A DNA stretch of 62,096 nt, the filler included, from Vermamoeba vermiformis (taxonomy: Eukaryota): the NCBI GenBank assembly GCA_045837725.1. It is 3 parts of 3 records of this genome, joined end to end, with 100 filler letters (N's around TTAATTAATTAA, not from the genome) between each part and the next. Parts side by side here need not be neighbours in the genome. Positions count along the whole stretch, not along the records: positions 31,553 to 43,257 come from JBEWZL010000112.1; 2 more parts are not named here. The stretch is one strand, 5' to 3'. The notes beneath the pieces were generated by a model. The model worked only from the letters and a program-made list of their open reading frames with translations. It made no database searches and was not told the origin of the DNA. Of the stretch, positions 3,871-41,495 are shown in pieces. Position 1 is the stretch's first letter. The number at the start of each line of letters is the position of its first letter. The translations under genes and the position numbers were made by a program.

Positions 3871-4080
3871 TTGACGAAGGTGCTCCGCGATTGGTTGGTT
3901 TAAAAATAGAATGGCCATCTAAAAATATAAAAAGGTGGCACGTATTAAGGTCATTATATAACCAACAACAGATAGATTACAACAAGAGGTGGCTTACCTA
4001 TACACCCAACCGTAAGATATCCGTTAACAAACAACAAATCCGTTTCGTACAACAACATCCGCTACTCAACACCATCAACA

Positions 4081-5260
4081 ATGCAAGCTTCATTTAAAGT
4101 TCAATTCAACGGCAAATTCCGTCGCTTTTCTTTGGAAGAAATGACCTTCGAGAACCTGGTCAACGAGATCGGAAAGAAATTCGGCTTGGATCGATCTGTC
4201 CTCATCGTTTCCTACCTTGACGACGAAGGTGACCGCATCAACATCAACTCCACCTTCGAGCTCAACGAGGCGGTTCAATATGCCTTGCCTGCCAAGTGCT
4301 TGAAGCTTTTGGTCGACGTGCCCAAGGCCGAAACTAGCAATGTCGAACCCTTGGTTACCGCTGCTCCAGAGGTCAAAGAGCAAAGCACCAACGAGCCTCA
4401 GCCTACTGAAGAGGAAGACACCGAGCTTACTGAAGTCGTGGTTGAGAAGAGACTTCGTCGCAAGCAACGTGTTCCCACGGCCAAGAAGTCTTTGTCCCGT
4501 CAACGAGGCCGTAAAGTTCCCAAGCGCGAGAAGACCTTGCTACGCCGAAAAGTGAACAAAATCAAGAAAGAGAAGCGTGTGACTAAAGCTCCTCGTTCTA
4601 TCAAGAACAAGAAAGTCCGTGGCCCTCGTCCATTTTTGGCACGTGTCATCGCTCACGTAAATCTCCCGACTGGTCAAGAGATCGCTCCGAATGTTGACTT
4701 CGTCAAGGCCTGGAAACTTCGCAACACTGGTACTTTGCCTTGGACTCCCGAGTTCAAAGTCGTGCGAGTATCTAAGGGCGAGAACGTATTGAACGCTCCC
4801 GACTCTGTGGTGCTCAATCGCGAAGTTGCTCCTGGCACTGAATGCGAGATCAACATTCCTTTGCGCGCTCCAAATCAGCCTGGCACTTACGAGAGTGCTT
4901 GGAGACTCGTCAATGGCGAGGGAAAACGCTTTGGTCGACGGTAAGTTCTACGACTACAATCTTTTTTTACTTGACTCATTCTAATGACTGTCTAGACTTG
5001 TCTGCAAATTAGTGGTCGTTGAAACCAACTCAACTGCTGAACAAGATCAAGACGAGGTTAGCGATAAGAAATTAAGAGCCGCTGAGCGCAAGCAACAACG
5101 CGCTGAAAAATTCGCCAAGTATGACGACCAATTGACTAAGATCCGAGCTTTGGGCTTGAAGACTACTGCTCGTCATGTTCGTCTCTTGGAAAAGTTCAAC
5201 GGCAATGTCGATCAAGTCATTGCAACTATCGCTTCAAAGAAGACCGCTAAGTTAGCTTAA
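4081..5260 (+). CDS. NBR1/p62-like autophagy receptor (PB1 - NBR1 FW - UBA-like)
   Basis: PB1 motif (FKVQFNGKFRRF...YLDDEGDRINI), FW domain (FVKAWKLRNTGTLPW...PGTYESAWRL) and a C-terminal UBA-like helical exon. One intron at ~4941-4996. Confidence 0.85.
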
Positions 5261-7570: not shown

Positions 7571-9376
7571 ATGGTAAGAGTTAAAACAAGACGTATTTGT
7601 TTGAAAATTTGTCTACGTGCTTGGCTGATCTCAGAGCGTCTCTGTTCAATCAAATTAATTTCATTAAAATATTTGCACAATAATAGATATTTTTTTATTT
7701 ATATTATCAAACGAGAATTAATAATAAAAGTTAATTATTTTCTCATCTAGGAATCATTGCCTCCAGAGATTTTAGAACATTTGTTCACGTTTTTAGATGG
7801 ACCAAATGAGCGATCTGCACGATTAGTCAGCTTATTATGGTTTAAATCGGTCAAGATTTCACAATTCAAGTTTAACGATCTTGGTCCTAATATTTTTTCT
7901 TGGCTTATGAATCGTTTATCGAAGTATAACTATCCACTCGATATATCAATGCATATTATACCACGTAGTGTATCAACAAAACAGTTTATCGATCAAATAT
8001 GCCGACTTACACAACTCAAATCCGTTCAGATCAACCCACGCTCATTAGCACAAGATAGCGACGAAGATTATTGGCTGAAATTATCAACATTGATCAATTT
8101 AGAGAGCTGGAAAGTTATAGGATCCTGGGGATATGAGCTATTAAGCAAGTTTCCTCGACTTAAGAAGATCCACTTGCCAAATCTAACTTGCCTGCCTAAT
8201 AATAGGTTACAACTTGAAGAATTATCAGTCGATATTAAACAAAGAGTCGATTTGATAGCAAAATTACCTTGCTCATTAAATTCGTTGAAATTAACATTCG
8301 AAGCAACATCCGAAGACCACGATCTGAACCATTTAACCAATTTGACGCAACTTAATATTGCAAATAAGAACGATTCGTATGGAGGAATTGATATCAGAAA
8401 TATTACATCGCTCCAAAGCCTTCGAGTATCAAGTTTGAACATACCGTACATCCACAAAAATGTAAATCTGACAGAGCTCCATTTCTACATGGATCCATAC
8501 GAGTTTCTAAATACAGTAGATATATTAGAAGAGATTAGACCATTAACAAGGCTACAGTGCTTGTCATTACAGGAGTCAATTGCCTGCAACGCAAGCTCGA
8601 ATCCATTTTCAACTCACTCCAGACTGACTTACTTATCCTTAAAAGTAACAGGGGATTTATCACTATTATGCGATTCAATTAAGGAACTTCATTTGTATAT
8701 TTCCAACAGTTTTGATCATGAAAGTTTGACGCATCTAACAAATCTCGAAACTTTGAGTCTTTTCGAAGCTTCCAAGAGTACAGATTATTCCAAATACGGA
8801 AATTTCATAAATAGCTTTACGAAATTGAAGCATTTGCAACTTAACATCTCCGATGACATAGAAGAAAATATTCGATTAGAAAGTATTTCAAATTTGACAG
8901 ATCTCGAACAGCTAACGTTGAGAAGAGCAACATTACAGTCAAATGATTACATATACCTCACAACTTTACAAACGTTGCAAATAGAAGCAGCAGATCTGCC
9001 TGACGAAGGCTTTAATAATTTGTCGCACTTGAAAAATCTTACTCAGCTGCAGTTATACGTTGTTTACGACAATAATACAAATTTAGCAAAAAAGAAAATA
9101 GATTACAGTGTAATTTCACAACTGCCGCTTAGAAAACTGATTTCTTGGCCAGGCATCGAAGAAACGAATCTGATCCAAAGTGTCGCCAAATTGACACGTC
9201 TTTATCGTTTAGGAATTTCGCAAATTAATAGTGAAGATGAAGTGCTCATGCTGACTCATTTGCAGCATTTGCGACACTTGGAGGTCTACACAGAATCGAG
9301 GGTCAGCTCAACGTTTACACGATTGACGCAACTTGAAACTTTTCCGCATCAGCTGAAACGGTACCGAACATATTAA
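7571..9376 (+). CDS. F-box + leucine-rich repeat protein
   Basis: LPPEILEHLFTFL F-box followed by many LxxLxxLxL repeats. The start is probably an ATG-only micro-exon at 7571 (ATG|gtaag). Confidence 0.85.
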
Positions 9377-9700: not shown

Positions 9701-11417
9701 ATGGCTTACAATTCAACGAAGCCACATCTGGGGGTTATCGTCCTTGGTCACGACGCCGCAGGAAAATCAACAATTGCTGGACGGTTACTAAGAGAGTGCG
9801 GAAGACTACATGAATCTGTGTTTCGTAAGTTAAATAAAGAAGCTGGTCTCGCGGGCCAATTTTATAAATTTTAAAAAAAAAGCAAAATAAATCAAATTCT
9901 TTAAAAATTCGTTAATATTCTAATATTGTAGGCCACGTAGTTTTATGTATAACTCGAAGCTAATAATAATCACCATTTTTCTTCCTTTTTTAACGTGTCA
10001 TTAAGGGCGAATTGAAGAGGACGCTCGTCGTGATAACAAACTCACTTCTTTATACGCGTACATCATGGAAAGGCTCAAATATGGAAGCGGAGATTACCTG
10101 ACAGCTGACATCCAGCCGTATAAATTTTATTCGACCAAGCACTCATTCAGCACTATTGACGCATCCGAGAACCACAACTTAATCAAAAATATGATCACTG
10201 GCACTTCACACGCCGACGTCGCAATGATGGTAGTGTCTGCTGCAAAGGGCGAGCCTGGGATCCGCGAGCCAGGCCAGACACTTGAACACGCGTTCTTGGC
10301 GTACACTTTGGGCATCAGACAAGTGCTCGTATTGGTCAATAAAATGGACTCTGATACGGCCAATTACAGCCAAGAGCGCTATGAAGAGGTTAGACAAGAG
10401 ATCTCTGCTTACTTGAGCATCGTAGGGTAAGTGTTGAGTCACCTCAGATCCGTTACACAAGTTTGTTTTGACACGTGTCAAATATACATTTGGTTCGCAG
10501 TATGACATTTGTTAGTATTAATAGTAACATCGATTTTTACTACTAATGCTTGTCATCGATGTTCAGTTTGACACGTCATACTCATGAATTATTTTTAGGT
10601 ACGCTCCTGAGATGATTACGTTCATGCCAGTCAGTGGCTGGACAGGCGAAAATGTCACAACAAAGTCAGACAAGTTGTCGTGGTACAACGGGCCTACGTT
10701 GTTAGAAGCCCTTGATACGCTTGAAAAGACCGATCTCAAAGACCTTCCGTTGCGTGTGTCCGTGCAAGACGTGTACCGAATTGGTGGAATTGGCACTGTA
10801 GTCGTTGGCCGAGTCGAGACAGGTGTGCTCACGGTAAAGGACCAAATCACAGTGGCTCCTGGAAATTTGAACAGTTACGTCAAATCTATCGAAAAGTGCT
10901 ATGAAACTGTTGACGAGGCTATACCTGGTGACGTCATCAGCTTTAGTATTCGCGGTCTTTCAAGAAAAGATGTGCGTCGTGGATCCGTTATCGGACACAC
11001 CTACAACGAGCCTCCGTATGAAGCCATTGACTTTGTCGCTCAAATTCGTAAGTTTCATTATATAATACCTTATTATATGAAGCTATTGTAATACTTGGTT
11101 TAGTTATTCTGAACGACCCTGGTGAGATGCGTGAAGGTTACACGCCATTGGTTGAATGTCACGCAAGTCACGTGCAATGCAAATTCACTGAATTATTGGC
11201 TAAGTACGATAAGCGCTCTGGAGAAGTAGTAGAGGCTGCGCCGAATATCAAAATGTTGCAAAAAGGTGATTGGGCATTGGTCCGTTTAGAGCCAATCAGA
11301 GCTATGATCGTCGAGCCGTTCACTGAATTTGCTCCGTTGGGTCGAGTCGTTGTGCGTGCCGGGCAACAGACAATCGCTATCGGTGTGATCAAATCTGTCA
11401 ACAAGAAGAGTAACTAG
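9701..11417 (+). CDS. Divergent EF-1alpha-like translational GTPase paralog
   Basis: GHDAAGKST P-loop, IKNMITGTSHAD, NKMD, PVSGWTGEN, PLRVSVQDVYRIGGIGTVVVGRVETG and a domain III ending PLGRVVVR...IAIGVIK. Confidence 0.9.
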
Positions 11418-25059: not shown

Positions 25060-26842
25060 ATGAATACATCAAACGTAAAATACACGCTGAAGCCTGGCAC
25101 TGTATTGATCTACCGTGAAGAAGGTACTTTCAAAAACCTTTAGCGCTTATAAATTACGCTGCGCACAACAATATAATCTTTACTTTTATTATTTACATTG
25201 TGCTATATGAAAAATAGCTATGAAAGCGTTAAAGCAAATGAATCTATTTATTGAAAATTGCGAAACTCCTTACACGCAAACTAACTTTTATTTGGTTCCT
25301 AGGCCGACTTAATTATAAGAACAATAAAAGCTCAGCTTGGACCGCGGATATTTCGTTTTGGATCACGCAAAAGGAGACTGATCGAGTCAAAATTTGGTTT
25401 AGAAGGTAATCAAGCTTGACCAATTCATTATAGCAGCGCATAATTGAACATGTATATTTAAATAATACTATTATACTATGTATTCAAATATTAATTTTTC
25501 ATTGTTCTATGCAGGATCAATCGAATTTTCTCAATAATTAATGGCCAGTTGATTGAACAAACCAAGCCGCGACAAAAGATCGGATATTTCTACTTAAAAG
25601 ATGATGGAGCAGTAGTTTACAACACTAAAATGGGTACGGACTTCGATCCACAAGAAATTTTTTCAGCCTTGGCTACGAATCCGACTTTAGAGTAAGTGCA
25701 TCATTAATAAGCGACTTCTAAGGACTATAAAGATGTATTAATAAGGGCATATTATATACAGAACGGAATGGAAAGTTACAAACACTCTTTTGGAAAAAGA
25801 ATTCGTGTACACTTTCAAAAGTTCGGATCAAGACATTTTATTGCTTGAATCGAGGGTAAGAATCCGATAAATAGCATATATGAAACATATTCTAATATAT
25901 CTGTAGTTTGAAGGCCCAATAGATCGGATCCACTTACGAACTTGTTCGCAAAAGATCAGATTCGACTTGAAGAAATGCTTGCCCGTCGAAATATCAAGCC
26001 AAATTAGCGAAGGATATCCAGTACCATCTACTAAAGAGTCATTAACCAAGCTTATCGATATAACAACGATTGATGAACAAACTTGTTTAGCGATCGAGAA
26101 AGAATTTCAACTTTGTCTGGATGCAACATTAGAATACGAAGTGTTTTGCAACAAATTGGATAAAATAAGCACTATTGTACAGACTTTGATCGATAAGGCC
26201 AAAGATATATTAGTTTCAACAAAAAAGAAGTTGGATTTGGATCTGACCAAAGAAATTCTCGACGGATTTACTCAAATGCACGAAGATAATATTGATCATA
26301 TGAAATGGGATTTCGCGGAAATAATAGAAACGAAAGGTATGGAATTAACGCCATGGCAATTACACTGCTTTGAAGATAAAGAAAAAATCGTAAATTCAGC
26401 AGACCTGCTTGGTAAGCCTTTAACTTTAATACCGCATTCAAATATTATTTATATTAATACAATTATAGGTAAAGTCGTTATACTAGATTTTTGGCATCGA
26501 GATTGCTCTTACTGCATAAAAATGATGCCGAGCATGAAAGCCATCGTCAATCAGTTTCAAACCGAGATTCAGCAAGATAAATTGGTAGTATATGGCGTAA
26601 ATACAGATGCTAAGCAAAGCGATGCAATCATAGTCCTAAACAATATGAAATTGAATTATCCGAATCTGATCGGATCCAAAAAATTCGCTACAAAGTGCTA
26701 CGTTCGTTCTTATCCAACGATATACGTCTTAAATAAGCAAGGCATAATCAAAGACGTGTATAAAGGCGCTCATGTCGATTTTGAGAACGAACTCTCAAAC
26801 TCGATCCGTGTATTGTTGCAGCATGAGGCAAACGAAGGATAA
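25060..26842 (+). CDS. TlpA/thioredoxin-fold protein with long N-terminal region (5' end uncertain)
   Basis: GKVVILDFWHRDCSYC (CxxC) and YVRSYPTIYVLNKQG in the last exon. Confidence 0.75.
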
Positions 26843-29776: not shown

Positions 29777-31452
29777 TTAGCATGAGATTACCAAAATAAC
29801 AATAAGATAGGATAACAATAACGAACCGAAAGTTGTAGCGCCAGAAGTGCGCGCGCTAGGGCTGTTAGAAGCTGAAGGACCGTTAGATGAGCCTGATGGC
29901 GTAGCAGAAGGAGTAATAGTATCGGAGAGTGGCGCAGCACCATTGGCGAGTTGTTTGAAGCCTCCTTGGACTTGCCAGCCAGGGTTGGTATCCATCGTGA
30001 ATTCCTACATTGAGTTAGTCTTAGTATTCTTCAGATAAGAGTGATATACTTACGTATGCACCGACAGTGGGAGGGTTGTTACGAGGCAAGCCGTTGAAAT
30101 CTGTTTCAGTCGAGTGAGATGCGTCACCAGCTTTAATAAGTGCGGATGCGACAGCAGGATAAAGGTTGTTGTTGGCTGCATTAGCAAAGACTTGAGCAAC
30201 AGTTGAGGATAATAAGAAGTTTGAGCTGGGGATGGTAGGCACAGATCCCAAGTAACCGTTATTTGTAACGGTAACACCTTCGAAATTGGATCAGTTCTTC
30301 GAAATTTCATCGGAAAGATGTGAGTACTACAACTTACTGTTGAATGGGCCTCCGTTAATCGCAGCGGTACCAGGGCAATAGAAAACGTTGTTTGAGATCA
30401 CGGAGTTGGTCGTACTGCTTTCAACATTCAAGCATCTGGCCGCGCTGTTGGTGCTATAGACCGTGTTATGGATCATAACGATGTTACGAGGATTAGTCGT
30501 AACTGAGTTGACAGAGATGTAAATTCCAGCGGCCTCTATTTAAGGGGATTAGAAACGATCAAAAACAAAATCAGAAACTTGGATGTGCATCCAAGAAAAC
30601 TGATCAAGAAAAAAGAATTGAATTATGCTTACTAGGGCCCCAACCAATAACAAGATTATTTCTAACAATAGCACCAGCAGTCACTTGAATGCCGTTGTCG
30701 CTTTGAGTTCCCAAAGCAACGTTGCCTTCAATGAGATTGACTCCGCGATCATAGTCGTCGTAGAGAAGCACACAAACACCAGGAATATTCTTGCAGACGT
30801 TATGGCGGACGATGTTGTTGTGAGATCCGGTCTTGATTTGGAAGCCGGATGCGCCTGAGCCTGAGCCATCAGTCGTTGTATCGTGGCAGTAGTTGAACTC
30901 AACAATAGAATTGAACGTTCTGCAACCATCGGCTGAACAGCCCATATAGACGCATTCACCGCTAAGCTCTGAAATTTCATTAGTCAGTCAAAGTTCTCCA
31001 TCCAAACTCCGCTCGAGGGCGAATCACGATTAATTCTTGTTGCTTTTTACGTACTTGTGCCACTGAACTCGCTGTATCTCAAAGTAATGTTCTCGTAGGT
31101 TCTACCGCCGTCGTTGGCGCTGAAAGCGTTGGCACCAATATCGTGGATGTAAATGCTGTCGAACACAACGTGCGAAGTATCTGCCATAATTCATTAGATA
31201 ATTAATAAAATTATTTTCCTAATAATACAGATTATTTTTGATTCTGATTCAAAACTTACCTGAAGTTTCGCCCAAACGGACTCCACGACCTCCGCCTGTA
31301 AATTCAATGCCCTTCACCGCAAAATAAGCACCGTTGAGGTTCCAAATATTTTCTTGAGTTGTTTGTTTGAACACTGGACGTCCTTCACCTGAAGCTGCTT
31401 GAACGACGATCGGATTCGTTTCAGTTCCAGTCCAAGTAGCCGCGAACTTTCC
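29777..31452 (-). CDS. Right-handed parallel beta-helix cell-surface protein, probably GPI-anchored (5' end lost at gap)
   Basis: GTETNPIVVQAASGEGRPV, repeated beta-helix turns (FNYCHDT, NNIVRHNV), an S/T/P stalk and a hydrophobic C-terminus. Confidence 0.8.
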
Positions 31453-31552
31453 NNNNNNNNNNNNNNNNNNNNNNNNNNNNNNNNNNNNNNNNNNNNTTAA
31501 TTAATTAANNNNNNNNNNNNNNNNNNNNNNNNNNNNNNNNNNNNNNNNNNNN
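31453..31552. other. Artificial contig linker (N44-TTAATTAATTAA-N44)
   Basis: Exactly 100 nt with a central six-frame stop cassette; identical to 43258-43357. Confidence 0.97.
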
Positions 31553-32731: not shown

Positions 32732-32894
32732 ATAGTCAGTTACATATTTTGTCCCAACGTTGCGTATTTTGTCCCAACGATAATCTCGAAGCAATCTCCT
32801 GTTATCTTTTTCGCGCGCGATTTATTTGTCCGTTTTTAATTATATTCCATTAGGAGATAAAATTGTCGTTGGGACAAAATGTGTAACTGACTAT
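32732..32894. mobile_element. ~160-bp MITE in an intron
   Basis: 28-bp TIRs: ATAGTCAGTTACATATTTTGTCCCAACG (32732-32759) and CGTTGGGACAAAATGTGTAACTGACTAT (32867-32894), one mismatch. An internal extra copy of TATTTTGTCCCAACG is present. Confidence 0.8.
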
Positions 32895-33294
32895 AAAATG
32901 CGATCTTATACGTACTTTGTAATTCAATGGAATTTTTAGGTTTTTGTCAGGACAAGTGCCGGTCAAATTGAACGGATACGTCTCTTTGTGTTGAAGCAGA
33001 TCTGACAGAAATTGCGCTGCTGTGCAAGATAACTATCGAAAATATTTAAAAATGGATATTAAATAGTAGTATGAATTATGTTGAGGCTTACCAGGCGAAA
33101 TTTTGGAGCGAAAGCCGAGATCTTGCTCGACAAAATTATCCGAAGCAAGATATGACTATATTTGGATGCAAAACGCATTATCTTGTCGATTAAGCTGTCT
33201 TTTTCAATTGTTACAGGCTTTGAATCAACTACTAACTTGTTTTCAAGTGATCGAATGCTGATCCACAAAAAGCTTTGAAAATCATTGTTGATGA

Positions 33295-33331
33295 ATCGAA
33301 AAGTATTGTAAAAACGCATTTGAGTAAATTT
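33295..33331 (+). repeat. Left terminal inverted repeat
   Basis: ATCGAAAAGTATTGTAAAAACGCATTTGAGTAAATTT. Confidence 0.9.
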
Positions 33332-33353
33332 CGCACTTTTATAAGACAACTGG

Positions 33354-36300
33354 TTATTTTTTCCTTCTTTTCTGTTCATACTCTGCCCATTCCTGGTTTT
33401 TGCTTTGGTCAGCATCAATGAAGCAATTTCGTGGTTCCCACGATTGCTCTCCATTTTCCCACAGAACCAACCATTCTAATCTGTTTCCATTCTTCCTATG
33501 GTCAACTACTCTTTTGACAATCCATTCCTCTTGGTCTTGAAAAGAATTAGTATTGGTTCAAATAGTTGCCAACAGCATACCCTGAGTGAAATCTCGTTTG
33601 CGCTTTTTGGTTAACACTTCTACCTCTGGTTTTGAGCTAGTACTAATTATTGGGGCAGGCACTTCTGGTTTCACTTGCCCAATGGAGAACATTGCTTCAG
33701 AACTTTGAATCGGTTCGTATTGTGCCAGAGCTTCAAAATATTCAATTGCCTAAACTAGCCTTAAGAAACGGTTTCAAAGTTGAAAGCTTACTTGTTTTGA
33801 CAAGAATTTCTGAGCCTTGCTAACAATAGTTTGAATCAAATCGGCAGAAGGGCAAGTGGGTTGTATCACAGAAGGCTGACCAGATGGAGCTGCGCTGAAA
33901 AGTTCATCTTTAACTTCTGTCCATTCATTATCCAGTGACTGTTTCTTATACAAAAGAGAAGGAGTGTTGTCAAGTCCAGGTTTGATCCAAAATGCATACT
34001 TGTCCTTATGTCCACTTATTGACTGTGAAAAGCCAAGAAACCATTTCTTCCATGAATATACTGGCCATTGTAATTCACGAATGAGAATGTCTTTTGGATA
34101 GATGGCTCTGGCAAATTCCACTGCTTGGTCCATAGTTTCTATAACTTTCCATCGAAAGTAAGTGTGGAATAACTGAAACAATCTATCAATGTCTTCATGG
34201 GTATGTCCAGGTTGAAGGTAGTGAATGAATATTTCATCGAACCAGTTATGGTGCACTAAAGCTGCTGCAAACTGTAGCAGATACTGGTTCTTTCCTTCTG
34301 CGGCACTGTTATCTACTTGCAAGTAAAGAGTTCTTGGTCTCTTGCCTGGGTCTAGAGTGAGAAGTGACTCTTTTAGGTGATGGAAAAGCAGTGAAATGTA
34401 AAAGTCTGAATCTGCTACATAATCTGTTTCCTTGAAAAACACCAATTCTCTCTTGTTCAGACCATGGTTGATGAAGCCAACAAAACTGACAGGTAGGAAA
34501 GTTACATTTGTCCATTCTTTTGGCATTGGATGAAAATGAGGCAACCAAAATGAGCCACTTTTGTCCGTAATGACACTCATCTTGAGGTGAGGCTGCTTGA
34601 TAGCAATATCTGTTCGAACTCGATAACCTTGTCTATCTCTGGTAATATAGGCTATATGATCTTGCATTTGTTGCTTAAGAGCTGAAAGAGTTTTTTCACA
34701 CAGACCAGATTGAAGTCGCTTCTGTTTAATTAATAGGCATGTTGAGCACTTTCCCAGTCTGGTTTCTTTCGGTCTTTTAACATTCTAAATTGATAATTAG
34801 TATTAATAGGATTCAAGTTAATGTACCTTAAATTGCTTGTGCCTCACTTGCTTGAATGTCTCAAAACTGGGAATATCTTCAGTTGGCCGTTGCAGTTTGC
34901 ACTCTTCTGCAAAAAGTTTGTACCACTCTTTGTTTCTGAAGCTAGCAATTACAACCATATTCTATTTTATACACAAACTTACGTTAAATGAGATGGTAAG
35001 TGAATTTCATCCTTTGTAGGAACATAGTCTCCATAGGTTTCACAATAAGCTGAAATCCATGCTGCAACAGAGTCTCTCTTTGGAGTATCATATACTCGAA
35101 AGTAATTACCATGTAGAGTTGCAGTACTGCCATTAAGGTGCATTTGCTTGCAGTGAATCACTTTCTGAACGGCTACACCATAGATCCGACAGAAAGCCAA
35201 CTGACAAACTGACATTCCATTGATCAAAAACACAACTGAAGGATCTGATATATTCATGTTGGTTCCCATAAATTTCAATAGCCAAGTTGTTTTTTCACTT
35301 TCATTCATGTCAGCTACCATTTTGCGACATTTGAGAATCTGTTGATACGTAAACAATGAAGTGCACCTTGCATTACAACAGCTATCTTGTTGAACTGGTG
35401 TAAACAAGTTAGAGGTGTTTTTTTAGAAGCGAAAACATACCCTTTGTTATTGACTGTTCACTCACTAGTTTGTCTTTCTTTGCATGTTGGGCTTTCTGAG
35501 AGGGAACTTTCACGGCTGTGAGCTCTCTGAAAAATGAGCGAGAGATGAGTGGCTCCTCTTCAGCTTTTGATATAATGGATTGAAACAATGCAATTCCATT
35601 AACTTCTTTCTTAGTTGCCAGGTCCTATTTAGATTGTCAATACTGGAATACAGACAAATGTCAACAGACCTGCTGCTTAATGTACACCAAATGATCAATG
35701 TATTGTTTGTTTTTGCTAACATTGATATCTTCATTCACTCGATAGGCTATACCATTGTTTTGCATCCCATCATAAAAGTATGTGGTGTTGTTGTTAAGAA
35801 AGTAACACGTGGTGTGCACCCCATCACACATCAAAGCACTTAGTAGACTATATGAGCTATCTCCAAAGTGGAGAGTTGGTTCAATTTGTAAATTAATATT
35901 GGTGAACTGTCTCTTATATCTGCCCAACTCCACTGTGAGAACGGTTGGAAGGTGCATTGTTCCTAACACATTTGTAAGAATATATCTTTGACATCACTGG
36001 AGTTTCTTACGATGTTCCACTGCAAATTCTCCACAAAATTCACACGGCATAGGCATTTTTTGGCAATAGTCTATCAAATGGTGAATTGAAGCCTGAACGG
36101 AGAGTGTACTGTCAGAAAGTTTCTCAGCAACATAAACAGTTGGGTTGTTGAATTGTTTGATAGTTAAGGGGCAGCGGCAATTTGATCTGTGCTCTTCAGA
36201 AGTGCAAAAAAGGGTTGCTTCAGCTGTGGGCAAGGTTTTGATAGCAGCAGACAGTATTGCTCCAATAGAAACGTATGATTGGCACGGAGTCCATCCAGCT

Positions 36301-36564
36301 ACTGGTCCAAGAGCTTCAATTAAATCAACTTTCAATTGATGTAATGCTGAGCTTGATAATGGTGCAAATTGAATCCAGGTTGCAAGCAAGCGAAAGAAAT
36401 TACTAGTCAGCTGCAAATCAGGAATACACTGCAGTGTTAGGCGAAGCACCAGGGCAACAGTTTCAATAGTGCACAGATCTTTCATTCCTAGTTTCTAGGT
36501 TAGTACTACTAATGAGGAAGCTCACCAAGTCCTACCAGCTGAGCCCCACAGGAATCCTTGAAAT
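33354..36564 (-). CDS. USP(C19)-like peptidase + Sola1-like DDD transposase + chromodomain fusion (spliced; true start upstream of 36564 not found)
   Basis: Exons splice in frame across introns including 35963-36010, 35625-35669, 35395-35440, 33750-33791 and 33536-33580. Transposase motifs: VCQLAFCRIYGV, RPKETRLGKCSTC, VITDK, LYLQVDNSAAEGKNQY, QPGHTHEDIDRLF. The last exon (33354-33535) reads EEWIVKRVVDHRKNGNRLEWLVLWENGEQSWEP. Confidence 0.85.
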
Positions 36565-37655
36565 CTAAAAAAGACAAGTCAGTCACTAACTTGAGCAGTG
36601 ATTTTTCAACGAGCCAACAATATAATATATAAACTATAAATGATTAACAATATTCAATTATCAATGAAATAGTGTTCGGCAAAGTCGTAGACCAGAGGTG
36701 CAAAAGTTGGTGCAAAGTTTGTTTCGACATCATCGCTGAGTCATTTTTCAGACAGTCGAATATCATTGAATTAGGCATAATGTGGTGTATTAAGTGCATA
36801 TATTAAGTTAGTTTTGTTCGGCAAACAGTTGCGCAATGGGAGGACTCAACAACCGAACTGTAACTACCAGTCAAGATTTTTCATTTGATAAGTAATTGCA
36901 CGTTTATATTATGCACAATTAATACTTCATATAATTACTCTTTAGGAAGTTCGGCAAAGTAGTGTTGGAAAGTGGTTAAAGTTGGATCTGACTGCCGGCA
37001 GAACTTGTATTCCACAGTAAGCCATGCAAAGGCTACAAATGTCAAATAGGACAATATATTCATTTATCTATCTTTTCTGAGTTATCTGATTGCTGTATAT
37101 GGAGTTACAAGTGCATTTAACTTGGTTGCCGAACATTTTACTGAGGGCACGGGGTAGTTGGCATTAAAGATAAGCTATAAACAAAGCATAAACAAAACAA
37201 AGCCCATAAGTGCATTATATACTATATTAATATCATCATATAATATTAACAGCACTGAATAATTATTAGAAATGACTTGCGAGGCAGATATGAAATTGTG
37301 CCGATCACTTTTTTCATTAAATTGTCAATTCCTTCATTAGGATATTATTAGAGCTGTACTTTAAAGCCCTTTTAATTATTAATAACTCAAAAGAATAATT
37401 TCTAATGACTTCCGAAGAGGGAGGAAAATCAAATCTGACCCGGCTTACCTTGAATTAATCTCCATAGTGTTTTGAATAAAATGACCAATGATATTGATGT
37501 TATTATTAATAGTAGCTGTAGTAGTTGTGGGTTATCTTGTTGATAGTAATAAGAAAATGGCTTGGTAAATTGGCTCGTGCCCAAAGCCCTGGTAACTTCC
37601 TTTTTTGGGAGAACAAAATCAGAAGTTGCTCGGAAGTCATTAGATAACCACAACA

Positions 37656-39114
37656 ATGGCTAATAACCCAGAAAACTCTATTATTGAAGTACCAACAACC
37701 CCCTGAAGATGCAAGCCCTCCCGAGCAAAAGACTGAAACTGATTCCTCAGATCTGAATCCATCTCGGAAGTCATTAGGTATGAGATATTACCTTTAATAA
37801 TTAGGATATAATAGTAAAATAATATACATTAGCTTAATGTAAGCTTAATTTCATTTTTCAATAGCTGACAATTCTGCCGATGATTCAAATCTAGCTCGAT
37901 CCAAAGAAAAAAGCTCAGATCAACTCCTCAATACTATAGGTAATAAATAATTACACTACTATCTAAAATATAATATTATAATGCATTATTATAGAAGATA
38001 AAGCCATTAGCTTGGACGGCCAAGAAAAGCCTGTCGCCGATCCAGTTTCATCCGAACAAGACAAGAGTAAGTCCTACTGTTTGTACACTTCTACAATAGT
38101 TAACTCTCACTGCAGAGGACATCACTGAGTACTTCATTTACTTCGGAGAGCCTTGGGAAAAGAAGTGTTATTATAAAGTGACTCGAAGAGTGGACAACTT
38201 CTGCATCGAGGCAGGAGACTTGGTTGCCTTGAAATCAAATGCTGGGCTCCACACTGTCCTTCTCATTAAGAGAAACAAACAATACAACAAAGTCCTTCTT
38301 GCCGACCCAACTCTAGCAAAGGTCATCGAGGTCAAGTTCAGCGAGGTCCTGACAATCCACGGCAAAACAAGCTCTGGGCAACAGCCCCAACTGGACATAT
38401 TATTCAAGGAGTACATCAGTGCAAAGGTAACCTAGCTATCTATCAAGATAAAAGCTTATTCACCTTGTAGAAAAAAAAGTTATCTCCGGCAAAGTCCAAA
38501 TTAAAGCCCAAAGAAATGCATCCAAAGAGTGCAACTCGTACCCAACCACCTCGTTCTTCTCGTTCTCCTCCTGTGAAGAGTGTGCCAGTAATCAAAAAAG
38601 GTATAATCAAAAACATCAGTAGTATTGTCTAATAACCTTGAACTTAGAGCTAAAGCAAGCAATCCCTCAGGCACTGCGTCGAAGAAAGGAGCGCAAGCCA
38701 GCTCCAAAGATATTACCTGACTCCTCATCCTCTGACTCGGAGAGCTCTGTTAGTGTCAAGCCAAAGCCAAAGCAACAAAAGAAAGTGATGGAGGCTCCAA
38801 AGCTCAAGCCAGAGACGCTGCTCAAACCAACCCAACCATTGATTGATAGTGCTCTTCAAAATGCACCGTCTCTTTCTAATCAAGATTGTTCTCCAAATCC
38901 GATTGCTTTGGAACCTGCCACGCACAATGTCACTCAACTGTTCAACGTACCATTCCAGCTTCAAAAACTACTAGAGCTTCAACAAGTGCACCATCGGCAT
39001 GCAATGGCACAACAACAGGCTAATTTCATGTTGTTGTTACAACAGCAACAGCAAGCTGAGTCTCAAGAGGCATTCAGTGCAGTAGTGCAAACCTTCTCGA
39101 AATTAAATAATTAG
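37656..39114 (+). CDS. Transposon-borne multi-exon protein: acidic N-terminus, possible BAH/SH3-like barrel, basic linker, Q-rich tail (5' end uncertain, possible frameshift)
   Basis: Short GT-AG introns link exons up to YYKVTRRVDNFCIEAGDLVALKS... and ORF 38638-39114. The ATG at 37656 runs into a stop after a C5 run. Confidence 0.55.
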
Positions 39115-39226
39115 TTCCTGACGTTCTGCGAAATTCTTGCTAGTTAAATAAAATGAGAAACTTCTAGAAGTAATAGATTTCGTTGATTTTTTGTCAAAAT
39201 TTCGCTGAATTTCTAAAATAGTAGGG

Positions 39227-39233
39227 TATAAAA
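39227..39233 (+). promoter_or_regulatory. Candidate TATA box of the NEIL1-like gene
   Basis: GGGTATAAAAGG about 60 nt upstream of the ATG at 39289. Confidence 0.5.
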
Positions 39234-39288
39234 GGAGAATTCTTAGCAAACTGTCATTTTTAAATTGATTCTAAAGACAACACAACAA

Positions 39289-40332
39289 ATGCCAGAATAC
39301 CTTGAAAACAAGCTAGATGCAAGTGCCATCAATGCCAAAGCAAAGGGCCACAAGTTCAACTCAATCTCCACTGGTCCATACAAAGTACCTACTTCTTCAG
39401 AGCCCCTACCTACCATGAATGGACAGTATACTCTCTCTGCCTCTGCCATTGGAAAGTGGCTTATTATCAAGCTGCGGCAAAAACGTCAACTTAAGCACAC
39501 TCTCTACATCTCTCTCAGCATGAAAGGACAAGTTGTGTTTCTTACCCCTGAACAGTATGAAGCTGAAAGCAAATTTGTGGCTATTGCTTTCCATCGTGCA
39601 GATGGCTTGGTCATTGGACTCTTCCACAAGCCCAGCAACCACATTGTTATATATGTGGATTACAAGCCTGACACTCTTTCACATGACTTCTTCCTTGAAC
39701 CATCAGCATTCAAAAAGCACCTGCAACAGAAGTTGAAAGCTACCCGCAAGAACCTGGCTACTACTCCTCTCTGTGTATTGATGCTGGATCAAGACTTCTT
39801 TCCTGGAGTTGGAAACTATCTGCGTGCTGAAACTCTCCATAAGGCAAACATTCCACCTTTCACTCCTGCTAGCCTCCTGAACGAACCTCAGTTTTTGCAA
39901 ACTCTGTTGGATGCTCTACATGCAATTGTGATGGAATTCATTGCCAAGTTACCAGATCACTACAACATGCAAGATGCTCAAATGAAAACTTGGTTTGAGA
40001 ATGATTTCCTGAAGGTGTATGGCAAACAAGACTCCCAACGTGCCTTTGACTCCAGTGGAAAGAAGATTTGGTGGAAAGGACCAGGGGGACAGCTTCCCTA
40101 TGTACCAACAGAAGATGTATCCAAAGAATCTGTTGGTCCTTATAGTGGATGGGCAATGGAGCTGGAACAAACTGAAATTACTCACCAGGACAAGCAAGCT
40201 CTTCACTATGCAGTGCGCAAAGGAAAGCGTGGACGACCTAGAGTGATACGCAACTCTATTGGAAGACCAAGCCTGGGCCGCCCTCAATACAATAATAGAA
40301 GAGCAAAGCAAAAGTTTATGTACCGTAAATAA
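39289..40332 (+). CDS. Intronless NEIL1-like (Fpg/Nei) DNA glycosylase/AP lyase with C-terminal AT-hook
   Basis: N-terminal MPE, YTLSASAIGKWL, SMKG, H2TH motif LDQDFFPGVGNYLRAETLHKANIPPF, zincless finger LKVYG...DSSGKKIWWKGPGG and KRGRPR. Confidence 0.9.
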   Translation: MPEYLENKLDASAINAKAKGHKFNSISTGPYKVPTSSEPLPTMNGQYTLSASAIGKWLIIKLRQKRQLKHTLYISLSMKGQVVFLTPEQYEAESKFVAIAFHRADGLVIGLFHKPSNHIVIYVDYKPDTLSHDFFLEPSAFKKHLQQKLKATRKNLATTPLCVLMLDQDFFPGVGNYLRAETLHKANIPPFTPASLLNEPQFLQTLLDALHAIVMEFIAKLPDHYNMQDAQMKTWFENDFLKVYGKQDSQRAFDSSGKKIWWKGPGGQLPYVPTEDVSKESVGPYSGWAMELEQTEITHQDKQALHYAVRKGKRGRPRVIRNSIGRPSLGRPQYNNRRAKQKFMYRK

Positions 40333-40335
40333 ACT

Positions 40336-40372
40336 AAATGTACCCAAATGCACTTTTACAATACCTTTCGAT
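40336..40372 (-). repeat. Right terminal inverted repeat
   Basis: Reverse complement ATCGAAAGGTATTGTAAAAGTGCATTTGGGTACATTT matches the left TIR at 32/37. Confidence 0.9.
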
Positions 40373-41495
40373 ATGAACTTCCACTCCGCCGTACTATCTT
40401 TCTCCAGATTTTCATATGCCTAAGTAAATTTAGCACATATCAAGCGCTTTTAATAAAGTTTCAGTTTCGATCTGCGGATTGACTTACTTTAACAAAATAA
40501 TCGAATACAGAAACTGCGTTACATTCAACCATGTCTTCGAAATTAATCTCGGGATCGGCAGATTTTTTTACTCGTACAAAAGGGTTTGGTGTCTTTGCAA
40601 AAATATCAGGCCCAAAGCACGCATGTAAATACGTAACATCGTCGAACGCGAATGCACGCTATCAATGCTATTAATACCAGATATAATAATAATGCTCATA
40701 ATATTACTTTTTTGAGGCTTTTCTTGAACCAGTATTCGAGATCTTGTTTGAGTGTGTGATCTTGTTTTCGGAGTCTTCAATAATTTATTAGCTAATTAAA
40801 TAATTATTAATGGCGAAATAAATGCAAGATTCTTACGGTTGTATGGTAAATTGATACATTTGTAACTCCATTTTCAAATCAATCATAAAATAAAGCTTCT
40901 TGCATGATCGAGCAAGCGTTGATTTGCTCAATATACCACTATTAATTATAATAATTTTAATAAGCTCATTGGGAAGGCCAATAAGAGTTGACGACGGCTG
41001 TTCCGATGGCGGATTTGATGCATCACGTTTGAGTTGCTTCTTTTTAGCAACTTCTTTTGCATCAAACTGCTTGAACTTCGAGGAAAGGCTCGGTGTCGTG
41101 TTTTTGTTGCGCTTCATTTGATTTAAATGATAACTGAACTATCAGCCACAATTGTTGCGTTCCAGAAAAAACAAGAAGCCACGAAGGGGACGCGTAACGG
41201 GGTGCGTATAAATTAATATGATTGGTGCGTGTCCAAGAACGTGATGGTGTAACTTTTATTTATTAGGCAATTAACCGGCTAAATAACGGTAACAAAAGGA
41301 ATTATAAATACAACAAAAAATTGGATAAATATGAATAAATAATAGAATAAATATGTCAACAGGTTTGTCACAGATCAGTTAGATTTACTCGACTACTGAT
41401 CAACAGGCCTTTGATATTTTATTATAAAGTGGATGACTTTCACGTTGTCCAGACCAAATCGCTTGGTTTTATTACGATTCTTGCTTTAGTGAAAA

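Follow-up and report, generated by a model that had tools for sequence, protein, structure and literature searches.

The 62,096 nt of Vermamoeba vermiformis DNA analysed here (assembly GCA_045837725.1; three joined parts, filler included, together called the window) contain a DNA transposon of autonomous type. Its base-excision cargo, kept by selection, is without precedent in the literature searched, and the probable fusion of its transposase to a chromodomain is unusual. The element spans 7,078 bp (33295-40372, in the part taken from JBEWZL010000112.1) and holds three genes: a transposase on the minus strand and, on the plus strand, gene 2 and a NEIL1-like DNA glycosylase. It is almost certainly a real mobile element, and there is good reason for confidence that the two accessory genes are functional for the element. 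Its parts are arranged as follows, L001 and L004 being two of its diverged metagenomic relatives.

33291-33294, no strand: left flanking ATGA (direct reading; same letters as 40373-40376), a putative target-site duplication
33295-33331, plus: left terminal inverted repeat (TIR), 37 nt, imperfect, 86% complementary to the right arm
33354-36485, minus: transposase gene, 8 exons, 940 amino acids; one open frame once seven GT..AG introns are spliced out
36486-37656, no strand: central spacer between the divergent gene groups, with repeated motifs
37657-39114, plus: gene 2, 6 exons; frame open over 37648-39111 across five introns, stop at 39112-39114
39289-40332, plus: NEIL1-like Fpg/Nei DNA glycosylase, 347 amino acids, intronless, with an AT-hook tail (Pfam and PDB profile search)
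40336-40372, minus: right TIR, 37 nt; L001 and L004 resemble the window up to 40372 and no further
40373-40376, no strand: right flanking ATGA (direct reading)

An earlier note on this DNA had described a complete element with 37-bp TIRs, filled by three genes almost to its ends, and this description holds. A 28-nt piece of the left arm has two matches only (at most 3 mismatches), both in the TIR arms, and none in 100 shuffles. The transposase stop (33354-33356) lies 22 nt from the left TIR and the glycosylase stop (40330-40332) 3 nt from the right one. The claim of a complete TIR transposon, autonomous by virtue of its intact 940-residue spliced transposase, is supported. Inverted repeats that flank host genes by chance were considered and are ruled out by the shuffles, by the TIR end shared with the relatives and by the contigs that break at the termini.

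Contigs of two DNA data sets, X1 (from the source organism) and X4 (a water metagenome), and the reads of two RNA runs were mapped to 32800-40900. In X1 the flanks have a depth of 651-736 and single contig pieces inside the element 4,091-4,927 (about 6-7-fold), a depth that is similar across the transposase, the spacer, gene 2 and the glycosylase; the ratio is not a copy number, and the excess is read only as several near-identical full-length copies. Of the 508 X1 contigs mapped to the region, 361 have an identity of 99% or more. X4 contigs break off precisely at the termini, at 33295 and at 40372/40373, and run on in other flanks, and copies therefore exist at other sites; in one of them, with 1,014 nt of foreign flank, the match begins exactly at 33295. 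The protein P0015, from a contig of 4,887 nt, equals the window over 292 codons, with two base differences in the following intron, and given this difference in the intron it represents another allele or an additional copy. In one X1 contig the match to the element runs as far as 35860 and is followed by TTAGGG repeats; here a truncated copy seems to abut, or to be capped by, telomere-type repeats.

A joint that leads from 33293 directly to 40373, skipping the element, was found in both data sets, at a depth of 282.7 in X1 (one contig, 25 nt on its shorter side) and of 5.2 in X4 (53 nt), and an element-free allele therefore exists. This allele, TTGATG|ATGAACT (TTGATGATGAACT), keeps 7 of the 8 flanking letters, that is, both ATGA copies minus one base, and exceeds a clean empty site by 3 nt. 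Of the ATGA duplication claimed in the earlier note, the part that stands is the presence of ATGA at both flanks; because the element-free allele keeps 7 of the 8 letters, the 4-bp duplication is not independently confirmed. The allele may have been left behind as a footprint of excision, its ends joined through a microhomology of 1 nt. Given that its form is identical in two runs and that neither run has a clean empty site, the evidence leans towards an ancestral site at which the element inserted without a clean 4-bp duplication. Either reading implies recent mobility. With near-identical copies, a presence/absence polymorphism and an intact transposase, the element looks recently active, and it is therefore open to experimental testing.

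The cargo comprises the glycosylase and gene 2. For the former, the call of a NEIL1-like enzyme with an AT-hook, made in the earlier note, is confirmed at the level of sequence. Pfam identifies the Fapy_DNA_glyco N-terminal domain (1.3e-5, 26.2 bits, cut-off 25.5) and H2TH (E 1e-7, 32.2 bits, slightly below the cut-off of 34.7). In a PDB search with a profile of five family members, the structures of human NEIL1 lead by a wide margin (E about 1e-12), ahead of mimivirus Nei (1.7e-7), Fpg from bacteria and plants (1e-6 and worse), NEIL3 and NEIL2. M1, P2, E3 and K56 (GKW) are invariant in the window protein and four relatives, and the SASA-x-GK stretch lines up with the N-terminus of NEIL1. The C-terminal part lacks a Cys4, and its LKVYGK..GKKIWWKGPGG aligns to the zincless finger of NEIL1, LRCYGM..GRTIWFQGDPG. 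The likeness to human NEIL1 (PDB 1TDH, 5ITX; profile positions 155-269) thus takes in the Pro-Glu N-terminus, the Lys of SASA-x-GK, the H2TH domain and the Cys-free zincless finger. Unlike human NEIL1, the enzyme of the element is distant in sequence, transposon-encoded and extended by an AT-hook tail, and its finger has Lys (GKKIWW) in place of the Arg of GRTIWF, a key residue of the NEIL1 finger. The tail carries the motifs GKRGRPRV and IGRPSLGRP, which agree with the AT-hook motif (an R-G-R-P core with basic flanks); the relatives of full length, P0003, P0004 and P0005, retain GK(R/K)GRP and GKGRPG, the fourth (P0006) being cut short.

These four glycosylase relatives have 67-70% protein identity, and their clusters lie on contigs of up to 7,136, 7,139, 7,167 and 7,611 nt, about the size of the element. 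A metagenome scan returned four loci, L001-L004, at about 68-70% DNA identity, all with the glycosylase; in L001-L003 gene 2 stands upstream of it, in the same order and with an intron in a matching position. The right end is reached by L001 and L004, where the likeness ends within a conserved TIR and gives way to the flanks CTTT and TATG. Searches of genome contigs and viral contigs returned no locus related to the glycosylase, and word-based searches no cellular homologue nearer than the four relatives from the transposon family. Between lineages, synonymous differences per site (pS) amount to 0.65-0.74 and non-synonymous ones (pN) to 0.18-0.21, giving a ratio of non-synonymous to synonymous substitution rates (dN/dS) of 0.07-0.16 for the glycosylase; in the conserved domain of gene 2 pN/pS is 0.27-0.37 with synonymous sites near saturation. 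The earlier note had named, as findings that would speak against it, other copies without the cargo and cargo genes that evolve neutrally. Neutrality was not found, and neither were copies that would make the cargo a one-off, given the even X1 depth over all three genes and the presence of gene 2 and glycosylase in L001-L003; both objections fail because the family carries the cargo under purifying selection.

It is possible in principle that the two plus-strand genes are functionless host passengers, captured once in a single copy. DNA transposons do capture host fragments, and gene 2 is frameshifted in the window copy. However, this is very improbable for two reasons: first, the same module recurs in at least four further lineages at the protein identity and dN/dS given above, with synonymous sites saturated. 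Second, the X1 depth is uniform over the whole element and the word-based searches point to no closer cellular source.

Gene 2 encodes a protein of about 391 amino acids from a conserved ATG, with an acidic, Ser-rich start, a domain of about 103 residues, a basic linker rich in Lys, Ser and Pro, and a Q-rich C-terminal helix.

37778-37864, 37940-37994, 38067-38115, 38427-38470 and 38601-38647, plus: introns of gene 2
38118-38426, plus: conserved domain of gene 2, about 103 amino acids, predicted to be all-beta plus one helix

The domain and the helix are kept in L001-L003 and the linker is not conserved; identity is 61-69% for the domain in L001 and L002 and 63% for the helix in L002 and L003. 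In each relative the final codon of the domain exon is directly followed by GT, in the position where the window has it. The earlier note had called this protein possibly BAH/SH3-like, a call that is unsupported because the domain matches no family or fold: Pfam gave no credible match, a PDB profile search only chance-level matches to alpha-hemolysin (E 0.16), and the ESM Atlas scores of at most 0.90, all to unnamed bacterial clusters. An AlphaFold2 (AF2) model from a three-sequence alignment has six to seven strands and one helix at a mean confidence (pLDDT) of 50. The predicted topology would be compatible with a small barrel without being evidence for one.

The transposase reads from an ATG at 36485 through eight exons, with introns of 48, 45, 46, 41, 42, 42 and 45 nt; a possible splice acceptor just 5' of the ATG leaves room for an additional 5' exon.

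36485-36011, 35962-35670, 35624-35441, 35394-34983, 34941-34827, 34784-33792, 33749-33581 and 33535-33354 (stop included), minus: exons of the transposase
35670-36485, minus: N-terminal domain, residues 1-256, possibly ubiquitin-specific protease (USP)/UCH-like (one ESM Atlas lead)
34983-35394, minus: Cys-rich region (CCxxxC ... C), presumed DNA-binding part, common to the DUF7869 family
33792-34784, minus: catalytic core exon (exon 6), DUF7869 (Pfam 4.7e-39), with D567, D651 and D693 (GHTHEDID)
33357-33533, minus: probable C-terminal chromodomain, last 59 residues (Pfam Chromo 9.8e-4; PDB matches)

The genetic code of the organism is the standard one, and its short GT..AG introns often have a CTAAC/CTAAT-like box close to their 3' end. 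An alternative code that would read the in-frame stops was considered and rejected, because each stop falls inside a GT..AG intron of 41-48 nt that collects variants. Among the 40 listed of the 77 variants between near-identical copies, 14 are non-coding, seven of them in transposase introns 3 and 4 (87 nt together) and three in gene 2 introns, and 26 are in exons (17 synonymous, 9 non-synonymous). The positions of these variants and the GT shared with the relatives lend the intron models indirect support.

From the alignments, the transposase is assigned an RNase-H-type D-D-D core. The three Asp residues, spaced by 83 and 41, fall on columns that hold Asp throughout an alignment of 63-65 long DUF7869 relatives, in which the full set of invariant columns is C, C, H, D, P, D-N, H-x-H and D. 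The Cys-rich region has no Pfam match; the family consensus in the same alignment is CCxxxC...GxxVC. A HMMER scan returned 2,406 library proteins at E<=1e-3, and among the matches listed P0015 has 100% identity, a fragment (P0017) 74%, two others 40% and the rest mostly 26-43%. The sources named for DUF7869 relatives are Thecamoeba transcripts, a nemertean, Mytilus and Naegleria lovaniensis (P0054). A further DUF7869 protein, P0020, is filed under a bacterial metagenome-assembled genome (Vulcanimicrobiaceae) on a 2,690-nt contig, and is probably eukaryotic contamination of the bacterial bin. The genome-contig search found no relative of the transposase, and among longer proteins there were two distant matches only.

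The C-terminal chromodomain of the earlier note is supported as probable by its best PDB matches, the Pfam score being sub-threshold: 21 of the 30 PDB matches are chromodomain proteins, including cpSRP43 (4e-4), HP1 (2e-3), CDYL (3e-3) and CBX, with the best spanning 4e-4 to 0.02. None of the 63 long DUF7869 relatives has a Pfam chromodomain or a UCH domain, and one has a Peptidase_C48 (Ulp1) domain; the absence of the first two from all 63 makes the chromodomain fusion unusual within the family.

The N-terminal domain had been called USP-like in the earlier note. The layout visible in residues 1-256 is a Cys near the start, a C-x-C and a C-x-x-C pair, and then a beta-rich part with H208 and D223; C5, H208 and D223 are candidate triad residues by inspection only. 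At E<=10 Pfam has no family for exon 1, exon 2 or the read-through, the PDB has no USP and nothing relevant for the domain, and a word-based homologue search with exon 2 returned no candidate. The ESM Atlas provides one lead for exon 2: its top match (0.95, 194 shared features) is to a cluster in which 11% of members have PF00443 UCH, and a 100%-UCH cluster appears at rank 24 with a score of 0.87. A single-sequence AF2 model of exon 1, the retained intron (X at the stop) and exon 2 had a pLDDT of 37 and was unusable. A USP-like identity is therefore to be treated as a lead and not as a finding, with chances that are roughly even or a little better.

The earlier note called the element Sola1-like, and membership of Sola1 is somewhat more likely than not. 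One account of the superfamily gives Sola elements DDD transposases, 4-bp target-site duplications, lengths of 2-9 kb and TIRs of 11-1,124 bp (PMC10741241), and an account of bivalve elements counts Sola1 there among the longest DDE/D elements, with a mean of 5,445 bp (PMC10294476). Compared by description only, the present element resembles Sola in its DDD triad, its 37-nt TIRs, its 7,078 bp and its 4-bp flanking repeat at one complete copy. It is unlike Sola, as described in PMC5751038, PMC10741241 and PMC10294476, in its NEIL1-like glycosylase, gene 2, chromodomain and N-terminal domain. A serious possibility, short of even, is that DUF7869 defines a different DDD superfamily, named or unnamed, to which the element belongs, with the likeness to Sola1 a resemblance only, given that the terms DUF7869 and PF25273 were not found in the literature searched and that the element-free allele shows no clean 4-bp duplication. 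However, the invariant D-D-D, the flanking repeat, the TIRs and a length within 2-9 kb fit the published description of Sola (PMC10741241), and DUF7869 relatives occur in Mytilus and Naegleria, with Sola1 reported from bivalves (PMC10294476).

Taken as a whole, the evidence tips modestly towards a young, multi-copy, autonomous cut-and-paste transposon with two selection-kept accessory genes that act against silencing or damage. By analogy, the chromodomain would tether the transposase to methylated-histone chromatin, serving either the choice of target or the finding of silenced copies of the element itself. Modified or damaged bases would be excised from the AT-rich DNA of the element by the AT-hook glycosylase, probably in partnership with the product of gene 2. 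Such base excision would undo silencing marks or mutagenic damage inflicted by the host, so that copies stay expressible and intact, and the two accessory genes would be kept by selection for the element's own benefit. The specific role of base excision in counter-silencing, argued from analogy, is somewhat doubtful. The more elaborate form of the proposal, a self-contained de-silencing kit in which the chromodomain transposase reads histone methylation, a possible USP-like domain may edit ubiquitin marks and NEIL1-type excision of host-installed bases is aimed by the AT-hook and a partner, is unlikely.

Several observations weigh against the reading of an active element with functional cargo, the first being the excess length of the element-free allele given above. 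Second, in two RNA-seq runs with the same species label (about 1.85 billion letters read per run) the 8.1-kb stretch drew only 1 and 3 partial reads of 90-95% likeness, which at face value describes an element without expression in the sampled RNA, and neither expression nor the intron models draw support from these reads; because the flanks are equally empty, these runs give no positive control for strain identity. Third, the gene 2 ATG at 37657, which L001 and L002 share, stands out of frame by one base in the window copy, a frameshift after codon 15 that is due to a C5 run at 37699-37703. A variant one nucleotide shorter restores the frame (MANNPENSIIEVPTTPEDASPP...), paralleling the intact exon 1 of L002; it accounts for a depth of 3,139 of 15,117 in X1 and is the sole form in X4 (5.84 of 5.84). 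The window copy of gene 2 is therefore probably defective, with intact versions present in the family. Fourth, among the relatives, gene 2 exon 1 of L001 (L001:205-340) is not in one frame from the ATG, and the L004 glycosylase (L004:239-924, a low-coverage contig) shifts frame after the LDQDFFP motif, which suggests that some relatives are decaying or mis-assembled. The linkage of transposase and cargo in these diverged relatives is inferred from the contig sizes and from P0017, the transposase itself not having been seen there on one sequence with the cargo. Fifth, the chromodomain scores 19.4 bits in Pfam, below the cut-off of 25.1, and seems to keep two of the three cage aromatics: in an alignment to HP1, the W of EEWIV and the W of VLWEN occupy two cage positions and the third falls in a gap. 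Finally, NEIL1-type enzymes are ordinary oxidative-damage repair enzymes.

In a rival reading the enzyme leaves epigenetic marks alone and serves transposition itself. The glycosylase/AP (apurinic/apyrimidinic) lyase, perhaps with gene 2, would clean ends or gaps at donor or target, or process abasic or oxidised sites in intermediates of the reaction, and the AT-hooks would hold it on the AT-rich ends of the element. Fpg/Nei enzymes are bifunctional glycosylase/lyases, with NEIL1 the closest solved relative, and other transposon superfamilies carry nuclease or helicase cargo (Academ). The loss of one base from the paired ATGA at the element-free allele is as expected from imprecise end-joining after excision, which would give a repair helper a task. 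This scenario is nevertheless distinctly unlikely, given that none of the known cut-and-paste mechanisms needs a base-excision step and that none of the 63 long DUF7869 relatives includes a glycosylase domain in its own chain; the numerous elements of the DUF7869 type evidently manage transposition without a glycosylase.

A role in protecting the copies has also to be considered, in which the glycosylase would repair bases deaminated or oxidised by a mutagenic host defence, be it similar to repeat-induced point mutation (RIP-like), of deaminase type or heterochromatin oxidation. The near-identity of the X1 copies would be consistent with such protection, as would three largely intact reading frames and the preponderance of synonymous changes among the exon variants listed. 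Recent bursts would, however, account for near-identity just as well, both C>T and T>C changes are common in the variant lists of the two runs, and a deaminase defence is not known from this host. Copy protection is therefore quite improbable, and action of the accessory genes against silencing or damage in the broader sense stays the preferred reading.

To our knowledge, transposons with anti-silencing tools of their own are few, namely those with VANC and the fungal elements with TET/JBP. VANC, of Arabidopsis VANDAL21, is an anti-silencing protein, and some transposases of Mutator-like elements (MULEs) have Ulp1/C48 cysteine-protease domains. The possible USP-like Cys/His domain fused to the present transposase would be akin to the latter arrangement, C48 being found in 1 of the 63 DUF7869 relatives; unlike it, the domain would, should the USP call prove correct, belong to another clan of proteases. 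The Harbinger-derived proteins HDP1/2 are reported to act in active demethylation (PMC5339849). Like the role proposed here, VANC and HDP1/2 represent transposon-encoded or transposon-derived proteins that counter epigenetic silencing; unlike the glycosylase they are not known as enzymes acting on bases, and they have no known sequence relation to it.

Fungal DNA transposons (KDZ and other lineages) encode TET/JBP dioxygenases that are interpreted as removing silencing marks (PMC12730594). The present element is like them in being a cut-and-paste element that carries an enzyme acting on DNA bases. It is unlike them in the chemistry, a base-excising Fpg/Nei glycosylase here and an oxidising dioxygenase there, and in transposase family and host. 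For the chromodomain, the nearest parallel is offered by chromoviral (Ty3/gypsy) integrases, whose chromodomains direct integration to heterochromatin (Gao 2008 as cited in PMC6839031). There, as here, the chromodomain is at the C-terminus of the inserting enzyme; unlike the DDD transposase of this element, chromoviruses are long terminal repeat (LTR) retrotransposons with an integrase.

In the literature searched, no description of a transposon-encoded Fpg/Nei glycosylase was found, nor any relevant report that joins Sola and a glycosylase. A base-excision enzyme under strong purifying selection in a mobile element, across lineages with saturated synonymous sites, is a new kind of cargo. If the proposed role is true, it would be the base-excision counterpart of the fungal TET/JBP cargo and the first transposon-encoded DNA glycosylase directed against genome defence. 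The element would then offer a handle on which base lesions or modifications limit the survival of transposons, and on whether NEIL-type enzymes act in epigenetic erasure outside animals. It would also add a characterised member to the very large, unannotated DUF7869 transposase family.

The central spacer contains TGTTCGGCAAA in three direct copies, spaced by 133-142 nt, and one inverted copy (36673-37135 and 37271-37777), as well as a perfect 15-nt inverted pair, TCTAATGACTTCCGA / TCGGAAGTCATTAGA (37401-37415 / 37630-37644). A block at 37581-37662 is conserved in L001-L003, and CGGAAGTCATTAG, akin to the spacer repeats, ends exon 1 of gene 2 and is kept in L001 and L002. The spacer repeats and CGGAAGTCATTAG are candidate regulatory or transposase-binding sites. 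Between gene 2 and the glycosylase, a TATAAAAGG box (39224-39234) lies about 55 nt upstream of the glycosylase ATG within a spacer of 174 nt, which suggests that the glycosylase may have a promoter of its own.

The window has no Rfam family at gathering score and no tRNA. Its host genes near the element include those for an NBR1-like protein (PB1 and N_BRCA1_IG; 3976-4944), a leucine-rich repeat (LRR) protein (7751-9376), an intron-split EF-Tu-family translational GTPase (10005-11091) and a thioredoxin-like protein (25907-26842), beside many other long open reading frames without a Pfam match. A run of N at about 31453-31552 interrupts open reading frames at 30000-31500 that resemble parallel beta-helix repeat proteins. 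About 400 nt to the left of the element, a pair of 28-nt inverted repeats (32732-32759 / 32867-32894, 96%) bounds a unit of about 163 bp, and contigs of X1 and X4 break at 32893 and then continue in other sequence, which suggests that 32732-32894 may be a small, polymorphic insertion resembling a miniature inverted-repeat transposable element (MITE).

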